Sequence record: SRR20825006_189 | Strand: one strand, 5' to 3' | DNA length: 64,000 nt | Shown: positions 11,553 to 64,000 of the stretch, piece after piece | How the letters are laid out: the number at the start of each line of letters is the position of its first letter | How positions within the stretch are numbered: the stretch's first letter is position 1 | Program-made: the position numbers and the translations under genes | The notes under the pieces: generated by a model | Seen by the model: only the letters and a program-made list of their open reading frames with translations | Told to the model about the DNA's origin: nothing | Databases searched by the model: none

Positions 11553-13015
<1,463 letters not shown>

Positions 13016-13022
13016 AATGATG

Positions 13023-13058
13023 GGCAGTGCCTGATTATGGTTTTGGTCAGGCACTGCC
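13023..13058. terminator. Strong hairpin between convergent hemF and the CBS gene
   Basis: 12-bp perfect inverted repeat GGCAGTGCCTGA / TCAGGCACTGCC; no clear U-tract. Confidence 0.65.
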
Positions 13059-13071
13059 GATTCATACTGAT

Positions 13072-13683
13072 TTAGATATCCACAACATTAAACTGTTCTA
13101 AAGGACTGAATGGACGATCCATTCCATGGACTGCCTTGAAGATATCAACAAAAGTCGTTGGTGTAGCAATTTCCACCGGTATGTGGAGTCGTCTTGCGAT
13201 GTCTGATGCGGAAATAATGCCACGTATTTGATGTTGCTCCTTATCAACAACCAAACAATGTAATGTGCCATTTTTTTGCAATGTATCAAGCACATCGCCA
13301 ATAGTGGCGGTAATAAGCTGCTGATAATCAACCGCTTTTTGTTGAGAGCGGGGAATCATCAAATCACGAACATTGATAGCTTCACGATCGATGCCTTGAT
13401 TCTGCAATATCTGAATATGCTGACCATTGAGTTCCTGCAAACTGATGGTGCCAATCAACTCATTGTTTTCATCAACAACTAATTTTAGCCGGACATGGGC
13501 TTTTTTCATCAGGTAATCAGCTTGTGTTGCCGGTGTATCGGCATCGATGACCAAAGGTAAGTGCTGTTTAAAGTCGGTAAAAATAGTCAGTGCCGGGGAG
13601 TCGGTATTAATTTCGTTAAAATCTTCCGGTTGAATTAGGTGTTCGACATTATCTAATGACATTAAATGTATTTTTTTCATCAT
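13072..13683 (-). CDS. Stand-alone tandem CBS-domain protein
   Basis: HVRLKLVVDENNELIGTIS and HCLVVDKEQHQIRGIISASDI CBS-like repeats. SD GGAG (13690-13687) precedes ATG 13683. Confidence 0.85.
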   Translation of the reverse strand: MMKKIHLMSLDNVEHLIQPEDFNEINTDSPALTIFTDFKQHLPLVIDADTPATQADYLMKKAHVRLKLVVDENNELIGTISLQELNGQHIQILQNQGIDREAINVRDLMIPRSQQKAVDYQQLITATIGDVLDTLQKNGTLHCLVVDKEQHQIRGIISASDIARRLHIPVEIATPTTFVDIFKAVHGMDRPFSPLEQFNVVDI

Positions 13684-13732
13684 AAGCTCCTGAAAGCTAT
13701 TCGCGATAAGAGATAACTTGTGATTAGGCAAG

Positions 13733-14062
13733 TTAAATACGGGGGGGCGTTAGGCAGGAATCAATGATGAAATTGGGGGGGGCTCTAATCGCGACAAGGC
13801 GATAGTGTTGAAAAGGCGCTAAAAGGGGGCGGCATACAGGAGCGCTCACCCAGTAGAAATTCGGTTCAGGGGTCTCCGGAACGGGAGGGATAATATAATT
13901 ATCGCCATCGAATGTATCCGTTAAATCAGGCCGGAAAGAAGTGGCCTCTCGTTCGATGTTGTCTCTTACTGGAAGTTGTGTCTCAGCAGAGGTGACATCA
14001 AAACTAGCTAACAGAACAACTAGACAGAGAATGCGTGAAATAGTCGTTTTCGATCCCTCCAC
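13733..14062 (-). CDS. Small secreted/leader protein with C-proximal RAPP motif (candidate ribosome-arrest peptide)
   Basis: Hydrophobic signal-like segment ILCLVVLLASFDVTSA, Pro-rich linker, ...LVAIRAPP (RAPP codons 13786-13775). GTG start uncertain. Confidence 0.6.
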   Translation of the reverse strand: MEGSKTTISRILCLVVLLASFDVTSAETQLPVRDNIEREATSFRPDLTDTFDGDNYIIPPVPETPEPNFYWVSAPVCRPLLAPFQHYRLVAIRAPPNFIIDSCLTPPRI

Positions 14063-14121
14063 TCGGGGTTAAAACCTACTTCAAGTGAGATAGTGATCTG
14101 ATTAAACGTCGACCCAGTGAT

Positions 14122-14146
14122 GAAAATCGGCTATCAACCGTAGCCG
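14122..14146 (-). terminator. Hairpin/weak terminator right after prfA
   Basis: CGGCTA-CGGTTGA-TAGCCG followed by ATTTTC on the minus strand. Confidence 0.45.
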
Positions 14147-14147
14147 G

Positions 14148-15236
14148 TTAGTTTTCCCCCGACAGTAATGCCAGCTGATCAGCCTGATATTCGTTGATTA
14201 ACGGTTCGATCACCTGATCCAGGTCACCCTCAACAATCTCACTCAGTTTATATAGTGTCAGATTGATGCGGTGATCGGAAATACGACCTTGGGGGTAGTT
14301 GTAGGTTCGAATACGTTCACTGCGGTCGCCGCTGCCGACCAGGGATTTACGGGTCTGCGCCTGTTCGGCTTCCTGCTTCTGCACCTGCTCGGCCATAATG
14401 CGTGATTGTAATACGGACATTGCTTTGGCGCGGTTCTTATGCTGCGAGCGCTCTTCCTGACACTCAACTACGATGCCGGTGGGGATATGCGTGATGCGGA
14501 TGGCGGAGTCGGTTTTATTAACGTGTTGACCACCGGCACCGGATGCGCGGAAAGTATCAACACGAATATCGGCCGGATTGATATCAACTTCGTCGATCTC
14601 GTCGACTTCTGGCAGGATCGCAACGGTACAGGCGGAAGTATGGATCCGGCCCTGAGACTCGGTTTCCGGTACCCGCTGCACCCGATGCGCACCGGATTCG
14701 AACTTCAGTCGTGAATAAGCACCTTCACCGACAATACGGCAGATAATTTCCTTGTAACCGCCGTGTTCGCCTTCCTGAGCATTGATGACTTCCACTTTCC
14801 AGCGGCGCAATTCGGCGTAGCGGCTGTACATCCGGAACAGATCACCAGAGAAAATGGCGGCTTCGTCACCACCGGTACCGGCGCGGATTTCCAGATAGAT
14901 ATTGCGCTGGTCATTCGGATCTTTCGGCAGCAGGAGTTTTTGCAGTGTCAGTTCCAATTCGTCCAGTTTATCTTCTGCCTGTGCCAGCTCCTCTTTGGCC
15001 ATCTCACGCATTTCTGCATCATTTTCTTCCAGCATCAGACGGGCATCATCAATATCGGATAATGTGCCGCGATAAGCATTGAAATTGCTGACAACGGGTT
15101 CTAACTGTGCGTATTCCTGCGATAAACTGCGAAACTTGTTCTGATTCGCCATAGTCTCGGGTTCAGCCAGCAGGCCGGCGATTTCCTCATGACGATCGAC
15201 AAGGGATTCCAGTTTCTGCTTGATCGAGTCTTTCAC
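14148..15236 (-). CDS. prfA: Peptide chain release factor 1
   Basis: GGQ motif (GAGGQHVN), PET tripeptide in [12 protein letters not shown], follows hemA. Confidence 0.98.
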
Positions 15237-62261: not shown

Positions 62262-64000
62262 TTACTGAAACCAGTCCTTGATCCAGTCAATCGAGCGGCT
62301 GACAGGGTCATCCTGTTGGCCCGGTTCGATATAACATTCCGCCGTCTGCTGAGGTGCAGTGCCACGGATGAAGGGTAACTGCCGGGCATTTTCACATTGC
62401 GCGGCAGATAAATAGCCATTGTCCGCGTTCACCCACAGCCATTCAATCGTTTCCGGTGTCGGTGCCTGGAAACTATCCAGTGGCTGGCTGGCCATAAATT
62501 GTGTCCAGGCACGCAGGGCACCGCCGGAACCGGTAAATGGTAATGGCGAGTTATCATCCTGTCCCAGCCAGACAACAGCCAGGCGATTATTGCTGAAACC
62601 AGCAAACCAGCTGTCGCGCTGATCATCAGACGTGCCGGTCTTGCCCGCGACATTGAGATGGCCCGGTAAAGTGCGGTAAATGCTGGCGGCAGTACCACGG
62701 TGGGTCACTTGCTGCATGGCCGTCTGTATCAGGTAGATATCTTCTGGATCTACAGTTTGCTTGAGCTGGAATGGATAACTCGACAAGGCATTGCCCTCAC
62801 TGTCTGTAACAGTGCGGATTGCTCTGGCCGGCATCTGGAAGCCGTTGGCAGCGATGGTCTGGTACATGGTCGCCACTTCAAGCGGCGACAGACCCTGGGC
62901 ACCCAGTAGTAGTGAAGGATAAGGATCCAGATCGCGTCTGACGCCCAGCCTGACCAGGGTGTCGATGACATTATCCAGGCCCACGGCCATACCCAGCCGC
63001 GCAGTGGCAATATTATAAGAATGGGTCAGGCCTTCAATCAGCGTGACTTCACTGTGTGATTGCTTGTCAAAATTCTGCGGTTTCCAGGTCTGACCATTGG
63101 GCAGAGACAGCGAATAGGGCGAGTCATCCAGCCGCGTGCTGAGTGTATAACCGTGCTCCAGCGCCGCCAGGTAGACGGCCGGTTTAACCAGCGAGCCGAT
63201 GGGCCGCTTTGAGTCGAGTGCGCGGTTAAAGCCTTTGTAACGGGTATTCCGATCGCCGATGACCGATAGTACTTCACCGGTTTGCGGGTCGGTGACGACC
63301 ATGCTGCCCTGCAGTTTGTCGACCTTCTGATAGCCCTGCTCCAGTTGACTGATGGTTTCTATCAGTGCCTGTTCGGCTTCTTTTTGCACAATCGGATCGA
63401 GACTGGTGAAGACACGCAGACCTTCTGAACTCAGATCCTCGTCCCGGTAATGCCGTCTCAGCTGTCGTTTGACCAGATCCAGAAAGGCCGGGTAGGCCTC
63501 TTTCAGTAAGGTGCCTTTTTTGACCACATCCAAATCAGCAGTGGTTGCCTGCTGATATTGTTCCTGAGTAATTTCTCCCTGCTCATGGAGCACACTCAAA
63601 ACCAGGTTACGTCGCCGCTTGGCCCGTTCCGGGTGACGGCGGGGGTCATAATAGGAGGGGCCCTTGACCATGCCGGCCAGTAAGGCGACTTGGTGTAGTT
63701 TCAGCTCCTGTATCGGCTGACCGAAAAAATAATGCGCACCGAGACCAAAGCCGTGAATGGCACGGGCACCGTCCTGTCCCAGATAGACTTCATTGAGATA
63801 AGCTTCCAGGATCTCGTCTTTACTGTAATGCAGCTCCAGCAGCATCGCCATCGGCATTTCCAGCAGTTTGCGGATCAGCGTGCGGTCAGAAGTCAGATAG
63901 AAGTTTTTAATCAGTTGCTGGGTCAGCGTACTGCCACCCTGAACAAAAGCACCAGCCTTGATATTGGCGAGCATGGCACGGGCAATGCCTTTGGGGGAAA
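62262..64000 (-). CDS. mrcB: Penicillin-binding protein 1B (5' end outside the window)
   Basis: QGGSTLTQQL, LEAYLNEVYLGQ, transpeptidase SLVK, SYN, KTG; frame stays open to the window edge. Confidence 0.95.
   Translation of the reverse strand, partial: SPKGIARAMLANIKAGAFVQGGSTLTQQLIKNFYLTSDRTLIRKLLEMPMAMLLELHYSKDEILEAYLNEVYLGQDGARAIHGFGLGAHYFFGQPIQELKLHQVALLAGMVKGPSYYDPRRHPERAKRRRNLVLSVLHEQGEITQEQYQQATTADLDVVKKGTLLKEAYPAFLDLVKRQLRRHYRDEDLSSEGLRVFTSLDPIVQKEAEQALIETISQLEQGYQKVDKLQGSMVVTDPQTGEVLSVIGDRNTRYKGFNRALDSKRPIGSLVKPAVYLAALEHGYTLSTRLDDSPYSLSLPNGQTWKPQNFDKQSHSEVTLIEGLTHSYNIATARLGMAVGLDNVIDTLVRLGVRRDLDPYPSLLLGAQGLSPLEVATMYQTIAANGFQMPARAIRTVTDSEGNALSSYPFQLKQTVDPEDIYLIQTAMQQVTHRGTAASIYRTLPGHLNVAGKTGTSDDQRDSWFAGFSNNRLAVVWLGQDDNSPLPFTGSGGALRAWTQFMASQPLDSFQAPTPETIEWLWVNADNGYLSAAQCENARQLPFIRGTAPQQTAECYIEPGQQDDPVSRSIDWIKDWFQ

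Follow-up and report, generated by a model that had tools for sequence, protein, structure and literature searches.

Introduction

In the SecM–secA system of Escherichia coli, the downstream gene's Shine–Dalgarno (SD) sequence is located in a stem-loop that is opened by the stalled ribosome, and translocation releases the arrest (Fujiwara 2024, PMC10987492). The RAPP arrest peptides ApdA and ApdP precede secDF, and they stall the ribosome when its P and A sites are occupied by the two Pro codons (Fujiwara 2025, PMC12992588). We analysed a stretch of DNA of 64,000 nucleotides (nt) from the sequence record SRR20825006_189 (the window; all positions are those of this stretch). An open reading frame (ORF) of 109 amino acids (aa) on the minus strand of the window carries RAPP near its C-terminus, and it is followed by a gene that encodes CBS domains alone. 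According to the comparative analysis described here, this ORF is probably a RAPP-class arrest leader that controls translation of the CBS gene through a helix at the ribosome-binding site (RBS) of that gene.

Upstream ORFs (uORFs) with RAPP-like motifs precede secA, secDF and yidC, and most RAPP-like motifs in ordinary proteins do not stall the ribosome (Fujiwara 2024, PMC10987492). The motifs RAPP and RGPP are depleted from proteomes; in small proteins that are secreted or located in the membrane, they are enriched close to the C-terminus (Fujiwara 2025, PMC12992588). According to the main text of the same paper, the genes preceded by RAPP/RGPP uORFs include those for TonB receptors, YcnI, PCu(A)C, PepSY, DsbA and thioredoxin types. 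Seven cases from Streptomyces lividans stall in vitro, two of them located before extracytoplasmic function (ECF) sigma factors, and arrest by CruR was also demonstrated in vitro (PMC12992588). The first RAPP arrest peptides were tied to Sec or YidC genes; the links to other functions are recent and mostly concern metal homeostasis.

Results and discussion

The leader ORF and the CBS gene

An earlier reading made from the letters of the window (hereafter the sequence-only reading) had described a candidate arrest leader with a signal-peptide-like N-terminus, an acidic, Pro-rich spacer and RAPP near its end, located directly upstream of a CBS-only gene. The present analysis agrees with this description. 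The leader ORF is present at 14062–13733 of the minus strand with a GTG start. Its N-terminus (approximately residues 1–26, positions 13985–14062, with the boundary set by eye) has two basic residues and a hydrophobic core whose best 10-residue Kyte–Doolittle mean is 3.16, and a small-x-small site precedes a Glu. An acidic, Pro-containing spacer follows, and RAPP is located at residues 93–96 (codons 13775–13786). The leader stop is 49 nt from the ATG (13683) of the CBS gene, which has the same orientation (13683–13072, minus strand, 203 aa). The encoded protein is a CBS pair (Bateman module). PF00571 matches it with an E value of 2.8e-15 in two stretches and is the sole significant Pfam family; no other domain and no specific NCBIfam family were detected. 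The RBS of the CBS gene (13675–13692, minus strand) consists of an AGGAG-type SD (13692–13687) and two tandem ATGs (13683–13681 and 13680–13678).

We counted R-[A/G]-P-P over the whole 64 kb in every stop-to-stop frame, of all six reading frames, with a length of 50 aa or more (60,247 residues). Two occurrences were found. The one outside the leader (62515–62526, plus strand) belongs to a frame of 68 aa that runs antisense to an ORF of 570 aa (62262–63974), and it is taken as spurious. The motif is otherwise missing from the real genes of the window, which fits the published motif depletion (PMC12992588).

Conservation of the leader and CBS gene pair

In what follows, loci are designated by L, genomes by G and proteins by P. 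DNA scans yielded four loci, all with the gene order hemA–prfA–leader–CBS: L001 from the named genome of Methylophaga sp. OBS4, and three from metagenomes. By protein search (E <= 1e-10), a CBS ortholog was detected in 10 of the 83 genomes of the family of Methylophaga sp. OBS4, and an 11-row CBS profile detected the same 10 genomes among the 90 of the order. The 1,400 nt upstream of each CBS copy were translated in three frames. All 11 intact copies (nine genomes, L004 and the window), which are 52–91% identical in the CBS protein, have a co-oriented upstream ORF of about 97–109 aa whose end is 49–115 nt before the CBS start. In every one of these ORFs, the N-terminus is hydrophobic, and 2–13 codons come after an I-R-A-P-P motif, which is I-R-G-P-P in L008. 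The sequence-only reading had named the lack of a conserved RAPP ORF before orthologous CBS genes as an outcome that would speak against it; the opposite was found, in 11 of 11 intact orthologs from the Methylophaga family or a metagenome and in one from another family.

The flanking genes vary among these loci. The prfA gene is located upstream only in the Methylophaga-type loci, unrelated neighbours are present elsewhere, and no metal genes flank the leader-bearing loci. In the tenth genome, G026 (L014/L015/L022/L023), an in-frame TGA interrupts the CBS gene, so that two separate pieces of it are matched. The leader frame of G026 is reduced to 32 codons but still ends in L-I-R-A-P-P plus four codons. 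G026 looks like a decaying module close to that of L009, in which the leader and the CBS gene degrade together.

The search was extended to an even sample of 401 genomes of the class (G336 was unscored, and G384 was used only for this count). Some CBS-pair homolog was present in 113 of 400 class genomes at E <= 1e-15. Only two close matches were found outside the order, in G283 (E 1e-35) and G143 (E 1e-52). The locus of G283 (L025), which belongs to another gammaproteobacterial family, has an ORF with a signal-like start and V-R-A-P-P plus two codons, and 84 nt separate the end of the motif from the CBS start; G283 alone has the CBS gene among 85 genomes of its family. As a negative control, 27 other, more distant CBS-pair loci were inspected, and no such ORF was found near the gene. 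In a maximum-likelihood tree of 31 CBS proteins, the 11 leader-bearing copies of the Methylophagaceae form one clade (100/99). This clade joins the G143 family and L025 (98/98) and is separate from 10 distant CBS pairs. L025 has a long branch in this tree and a deviant composition, and the leader may have arisen once or twice. Across differing genomic contexts, the leader stays with one CBS clade, and these searches indicate that the leader–CBS pairing is clade-specific.

Relatives of the leader were also found in protein databases. A word-indexed search of 5.8 billion proteins gave three relatives among seven candidates, one of them 100% identical up to RAPP and two 66% identical. An exhaustive profile search of 1.84 billion representatives, which are given with no genomic context, gave seven proteins at E <= 1e-3. 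A 673-aa protein among these seven was set aside as a short-stretch match. Four of the five retrieved matches start with signal-like residues and have I-R-[A/G/D]-P-P close to their C-terminus. The database homolog P0124 (80 aa) matches the first 76 leader positions and then has unrelated residues, as a frameshifted or truncated call would.

Features of the leader peptide and selection on it

Twelve intact leaders were compared (the window, L004, the nine genome copies and L025). Signal features were scored by simple rules (Kyte–Doolittle hydrophobicity of the core and number of Lys and Arg), and the starts are best guesses. All 12 leaders have a hydrophobic core with a Kyte–Doolittle value of 2.2–3.5 preceded by one to three Lys or Arg residues, an acidic spacer with a net charge of -4 to -9, and R-[A/G]-P-P located 2–13 codons ahead of the stop. 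The nascent chain at the predicted stall has 92–100 residues in all 12. Between lineages, the leaders are unalignable outside the motif; what they have in common is limited to a signal peptide, their total length and the five residues just ahead of the tail. No match to the leader was found in Pfam at E <= 0.1, DUF2946 included, or in NCBIfam. CXXC is present in none of the 12 leaders, and no other metal-binding motif is conserved across them. A His residue is located within 12 residues of RAPP in several leaders; none is so located in L005, L008 and L013.

The ratio of nonsynonymous to synonymous substitution rates (dN/dS) of the leader is 0.28–0.85 in eight pairs, whereas that of the CBS gene is 0.06–0.12 in the same pairs. 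These values indicate that the leader is under purifying but relaxed selection as a peptide. Across the loci, the motif codons vary synonymously: Arg is encoded by AGA, AGG, CGC or CGA, Ala by GCC, GCA or GCG, and each Pro by CCA, CCC, CCG or CCT. Because the codons turn over at fixed residues, selection acts on the motif as a peptide and not on its codons. The second position of the motif is Ala, Gly (L008 and P0125) or Asp (P0126), and Arg and the two Pro residues are invariant. In the saturation mutagenesis of ApdA/ApdP, Gly was fully permissive at this position and Asp, Ser and Pro partly so, and Arg and the P-site Pro were irreplaceable (PMC12992588). The natural variation found here matches these published results.

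L004 and L005 have ATG at the position homologous to the leader start, L006 has TTG and the window has GTG. This exchange of GTG, ATG and TTG at one position makes it look like a real start. In L007, the leader frame is open back into the end of prfA; loss of the start codon, a non-canonical start or an assembly error could explain this.

Change of frame after RAPP

In the window, the C run of the Ala-Pro-Pro codons (13775–13783) is one base longer than in the 99%-identical loci L002 and L003, and one G is replaced by C. In the relatives with 99–100% identity (P0001, L002 and L003), the frame ends at a TAA (13750–13752, minus strand; out of frame in the window) that is seven codons past RAPP, giving a leader of 103 aa, whereas 13 codons follow RAPP in the window. 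L004 shows an independent change of frame at the same spot and has 12 tail codons. Even so, the seven sequences that were aligned all show conservation of the tail at the nucleotide level. Since the frame shifts twice while the nucleotides stay, the tail is constrained as RNA and not as peptide. The residues translated after RAPP matter little, as expected if most ribosomes wait at RAPP. The sequence-only reading had raised the 13 codons following the motif as a caveat. This number is correct for the window but is peculiar to it, and because the tail is free as a peptide, the caveat is removed. The extra base of the window may be a real variant or a read error in a homopolymer.

Complementarity between the leader tail and the RBS of the CBS gene

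Minimum-free-energy folds were calculated for the stretch from 45 nt ahead of the motif to 25 nt past the CBS start. The codons after RAPP are predicted to pair with the SD and/or the start of the CBS gene in the window and in the majority of the other loci. The predicted anti-RBS strand of the window (13755–13772, minus strand) spans +8 to +25 relative to 13780, the base with which the P-site Pro codon begins. It consists of two parts: 13772–13764 (+8 to +16) pairs with 13683–13675, forming 9 bp over the two ATGs, and 13760–13755 (+20 to +25) pairs with the SD at 13692–13687.

The duplex between the 30-nt tail and the 30-nt RBS was evaluated with RNAduplex against 80 other 30-nt windows of the same leader. 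The duplex of the window (-17.4 kcal/mol) is better than 80 of 80 controls. The same holds for six of the 12 intact loci in total (the window, L004, L006, L007, L011 and L012). The number of controls as good, out of 80, is 3 in L009, 4 in L025, 7 in L013, 8 in L008, 9 in L005 and 19 in L010, and it is 22 in the decayed locus L015. Fisher's method over six lineages gave p = 2.6e-4, or 1.4e-3 when each lineage was represented by its worst member. Against mononucleotide-shuffled tails, which are a more stringent control, at most 5% of the shuffles are as good in eight of the 12 intact loci. The RNAalifold consensus of six Methylophaga-type sequences recovered both helices. Between lineages, the pairing is kept by quite different sequences. 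In addition, a small conserved hairpin is located in the spacer between the leader and the CBS gene (13714–13735, minus strand), and its 5' arm overlaps the window's own leader stop; one pair of this hairpin is changed on both sides and kept in L007.

The CBS protein and its subfamily

The CBS protein gave few functional clues by itself. In NCBIfam, only sub-threshold matches to the CBS parts of larger enzymes were detected. The PDB sequence search gave four generic CBS matches, and the ESM Atlas gave generic CBS clusters only; no function was named in either. The AlphaFold2 model has a mean predicted local distance difference test (pLDDT) score of 71, and both ends are disordered. Foldseek matched it (E about 1e-8) to archaeal and bacterial stand-alone CBS pairs and to the CBS modules of IMPDH, MgtE, OpuCA, CBSX and DarB/CbpB. 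A database search with the CBS protein gave 148 proteins at E <= 1e-20 among 233 candidates, and the relatives at 45–48% identity include entries named from Rheinheimera, Arsukibacterium, Oceanisphaera and Zobellella.

The genes adjacent to CBS genes of the leaderless sister clade, the G143 family, are the sole functional lead. In seven of nine loci of this clade, the CBS gene is divergent and located beside a gene for a heavy-metal P-type ATPase (HMBD plus E1–E2 ATPase). The loci named as lying beside CsoR-type repressor or heavy-metal ATPase genes are L024, L053, L054 and L056–L059, and a CsoR-type metal repressor gene (PF02583) is located between the CBS and ATPase genes in five of these seven. 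One of the remaining two leaderless loci adjoins an outer-membrane efflux gene, and nothing recognisable adjoins the other. The CBS subfamily may thus belong to a metal or envelope-stress response. In six of the nine leaderless loci (L024, L053, L054, L056, L057 and L058), a co-oriented ORF of 328–369 aa with no Pfam family follows the CBS gene.

Proposed mechanism

The sequence-only reading of the ORF as an arrest leader gains from two results described above, namely the conserved RAPP ORF and the tail codons complementary to the CBS RBS, a SecM-type layout. The in silico basis comprises the conserved layout, the purifying selection on the peptide, the RNA complementarity and the co-inheritance with one CBS clade; from here we infer that the ribosome stalls, that the leader is exported, what releases the arrest and in which direction the CBS gene is regulated. 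We consider it likely that the ORF is a RAPP-class arrest leader and that it controls CBS translation through the RBS helix.

The proposed mechanism is as follows. In the free mRNA, the 18 nt of 13772–13755 would pair with the SD and tandem starts of the CBS gene (13692–13675), and the CBS gene would be shut. The ribosome translating the leader would stall with the first Pro codon (13780–13778) in the P site and the second (13777–13775) in the A site, when the chain has about 95 residues; this register is assigned by analogy with ApdA, ApdP and CruR (PMC12992588). A ribosome parked on RAPP would cover the first helix strand (+8 to +16), the RBS would be exposed, and CBS protein would be made. 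During the stall, the signal peptide would engage the Sec translocon, and the pull on the chain would release the arrest. The CBS output would then rise when export of the leader is slow. Release by Sec-dependent export is the default assumption, to which we give about half of the confidence placed in the arrest leader itself.

A tentative and broader picture, for which we would claim rather less than an even chance, is an arrest peptide monitoring export or the envelope whose target is not the export machinery but a nucleotide-binding CBS regulator that stands alone. In this picture, slow secretion would be turned into a signalling protein in the cytoplasm. The CBS subfamily might be an effector of envelope or metal stress that two lineages control in entirely different ways, by nascent-chain sensing in one and by a metal repressor in the other.

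Several observations weigh against the arrest-leader mechanism. The support for the stall is computational, and the signal peptide was judged by simple rules only. To our knowledge, the CBS-pair protein has neither a role in export nor a link to Sec or YidC, and it therefore lacks the feedback expected of a true monitoring substrate. The CBS ortholog of the G143-family sister clade is present in nine of 121 sampled genomes, and the leader is present in none of the nine. The database homolog P0124 ends without RAPP. Initiation of the leader is also weak or unclear. The sequence-only reading had already remarked on the weak SD of the GTG start, and indeed no good SD precedes the homologous start in the Methylophaga group. 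L007 (genome G077) has GGG at the homologous position and no ATG, GTG or TTG ahead of the hydrophobic core. L011 and L012 likewise have no canonical start ahead of the core; both have an ATT at the same place, 7 nt after AGGA, which suggests that these two leaders initiate at ATT. The leader of L013 also lacks a canonical start.

The RNA helix has weaknesses of its own. The mononucleotide shuffles are not beaten in four of the 12 loci (fraction as good: L008 0.07, L011 0.10, L010 0.30 and L013 0.53), and a pyrimidine-rich stretch after Pro codons tends to match a purine-rich SD. Within the Methylophaga group, no covariation was found in the helix between the tail and the RBS, as both strands are invariant. 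Judged by the generally known extent of the footprint of a stalled ribosome, the SD-pairing hexamer (+20 to +25) is beyond this footprint, and only the start-pairing strand is covered. In the predicted fold, the stalled ribosome would cover the first strand (+8 to +16) and leave a short SD helix that closes a large loop.

Alternative explanations

As the main alternative, the leader may be an arrest peptide whose release cue is not general Sec activity but a metal or another envelope condition, sensed by the exported part, with copper as the obvious candidate, or it may act through Rho-dependent termination like CruR. The response of CruR, likewise a RAPP uORF with an exported product, is to copper (PMC9426467), and RAPP/RGPP uORFs are reported to be enriched before copper-related genes (PMC12992588). 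At the present locus, the sister-clade neighbours point in the same direction, with the heavy-metal ATPase gene in seven of nine loci, CsoR between in five of these seven, and one efflux gene, as do the His residues close to RAPP in several leaders. His is not universal, however, and it would sit inside the exit tunnel at the stall. The 12 leaders share neither CXXC nor another conserved metal-binding motif, the spacer is poorly conserved with dN/dS up to 0.85, the leader matches no Pfam family including DUF2946, and the leader-bearing loci have no flanking metal genes. With regard to Rho, the conserved complementarity between the tail and the RBS favours unmasking of the SD over termination. 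We regard a metal cue or Rho-dependent termination as unlikely.

Two further explanations dispense with regulation by arrest. The ORF might encode a small secreted or periplasmic protein that is co-transcribed with the CBS gene, and RAPP would then slow the ribosome like any Pro-Pro. A dN/dS below 1 is typical of any coding gene, and the weak start codons and SD of the leader agree with such a role. An effector would, however, keep its mature part, which is unconserved between lineages. The peptide past RAPP changes frame twice while its nucleotides are kept, the tail pairs with the RBS of the next gene, and the leader follows one CBS clade across genomic contexts. This explanation is improbable. 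It is more improbable still, indeed hardly credible, that the region is untranslated, and that the CBS gene simply has a non-coding RNA as its 5' leader, in which the open frame is incidental. Four of the 12 leaders have no canonical start and the Methylophaga group has no good SD, as such an RNA would allow. Yet a frame of about 100 codons is open in 12 loci despite saturation-level divergence and indels, dN/dS is 0.28–0.85, the codons of the invariant R-x-P-P turn over synonymously, and the features of the signal peptide are retained with different residues. No Rfam family was detected at E <= 1 in 13000–14300. The arrest leader acting through the RBS helix is the explanation that we prefer.

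Genomic surroundings of the module

The leader–CBS pair is located downstream of hemA (16492–15233, minus strand) and prfA (15236–14148, minus strand), and hemF (12104–13015, plus strand) is convergent with the CBS gene. The gene order of Escherichia coli is hemA–prfA–prmC. In the window, a terminator-like hairpin comes after prfA, and the leader–CBS pair stands next in place of prmC. This hairpin, between the end of prfA and the leader (14128–14146, minus strand), is a consensus match only. The promoter scan gave two weak sigma-70-like matches, compared with 3.0 expected in shuffles, and neither is positioned to drive the leader.

Contigs from RNA libraries were also compared with the locus. 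Contigs from the libraries X3, X4 and X5 (two studies) match parts of the CBS gene (13201–13436, 13395–13545 and 13401–13551) with one mismatch; DNA is a possible source, and such contigs cannot show transcription. A 288-nt exact contig of X1, whose RNA origin is a guess only, covers 13927–14214. The region 13755–13925 has no contig cover. None of these contig results carries weight for or against the leader.

Significance of the module

The leader and the CBS gene form a compact, conserved two-gene module, whose output is a cytoplasmic CBS protein of the adenine-nucleotide-binding type with no assigned role. The module is a handle on the function of a widespread uncharacterised CBS subfamily. 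The predicted RNA switch is simple and can be addressed by a handful of point mutations. The tail is a natural example of sequence past an arrest point in which the RNA is under constraint and the peptide is free to change. If the ribosome does stall there, the leader would be a short natural sensor of force or export (about 95 residues) from a non-model marine methylotroph.

Comparison with known systems

The sequence-only reading had presented the pairing of an arrest leader with a CBS gene as one not known to be described. RAPP/RGPP uORFs for small secreted proteins before genes 'beyond protein localization' are published (PMC12992588); only the CBS target and the leader family look undescribed within the main texts searched. 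The term CBS has no occurrences in the main texts of PMC12992588 and PMC10987492. In the full-text literature, the combination of 'arrest peptide' and 'CBS domain' gave only archaeal hibernation factors among the matches listed, and Methylophaga is absent from the listed literature matches on RAPP uORFs.

Like SecM, the leader has an N-terminal signal sequence and a motif near the C-terminus, and the core of SecM is I-R-A-x-P (PMC10987492). The predicted folds also share with SecM an RBS paired with sequence that lies under the stalled ribosome. Unlike SecM, the leader has RAPP instead of RAGP and about 100 aa, and Pfam and NCBIfam give no sequence relation. It shows no homology to the SecM family and is not located before secA. 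The target is a cytoplasmic CBS pair and not the export machinery, with no obvious feedback loop. A monitoring substrate in the strict sense controls a component of the pathway that releases it; the target here has only CBS domains.

ApdA and ApdP (the 'RQH family') have a signal sequence and a C-terminal RAPP in which Gly is allowed for Ala, and the region N-terminal of the motif is unconserved (PMC12992588). The leader shares with the RAPP class the C-terminal R-[A/G]-P-P, the N-terminal localisation signal, and a co-oriented nearby gene with which it is kept together. It differs from ApdA and ApdP in that, wherever the genomic context is given, the leader family is met only with the CBS gene, and its arrest is predicted.

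CruR of Bordetella pertussis (DUF2946) is likewise an exported small uORF with RAPP a few residues from the end, and its target is outside Sec/YidC (Roy 2022, PMC9426467). CruR has CXXC at a fixed 45-residue spacing, senses copper and acts by Rho-dependent termination, whereas the present leaders have no CXXC and the RNA points to unmasking of the RBS. Neither the CXXC spacing nor the DUF2946 profile of CruR was found in them. The RAPP/RGPP uORFs of S. lividans, which are located before genes for ECF sigma factors, thioredoxin-domain proteins and metal-related proteins, similarly combine a localisation signal with a target other than export (PMC12992588). YwcI before sacT in Bacillus subtilis is also a RAPP-class leader with a non-export target (PMC10987492). 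The phyla, leaders and targets of the S. lividans uORFs and YwcI are unlike those of the leader–CBS module. The kind of system is known, and the leader family with its CBS target appears to be a new member of it.

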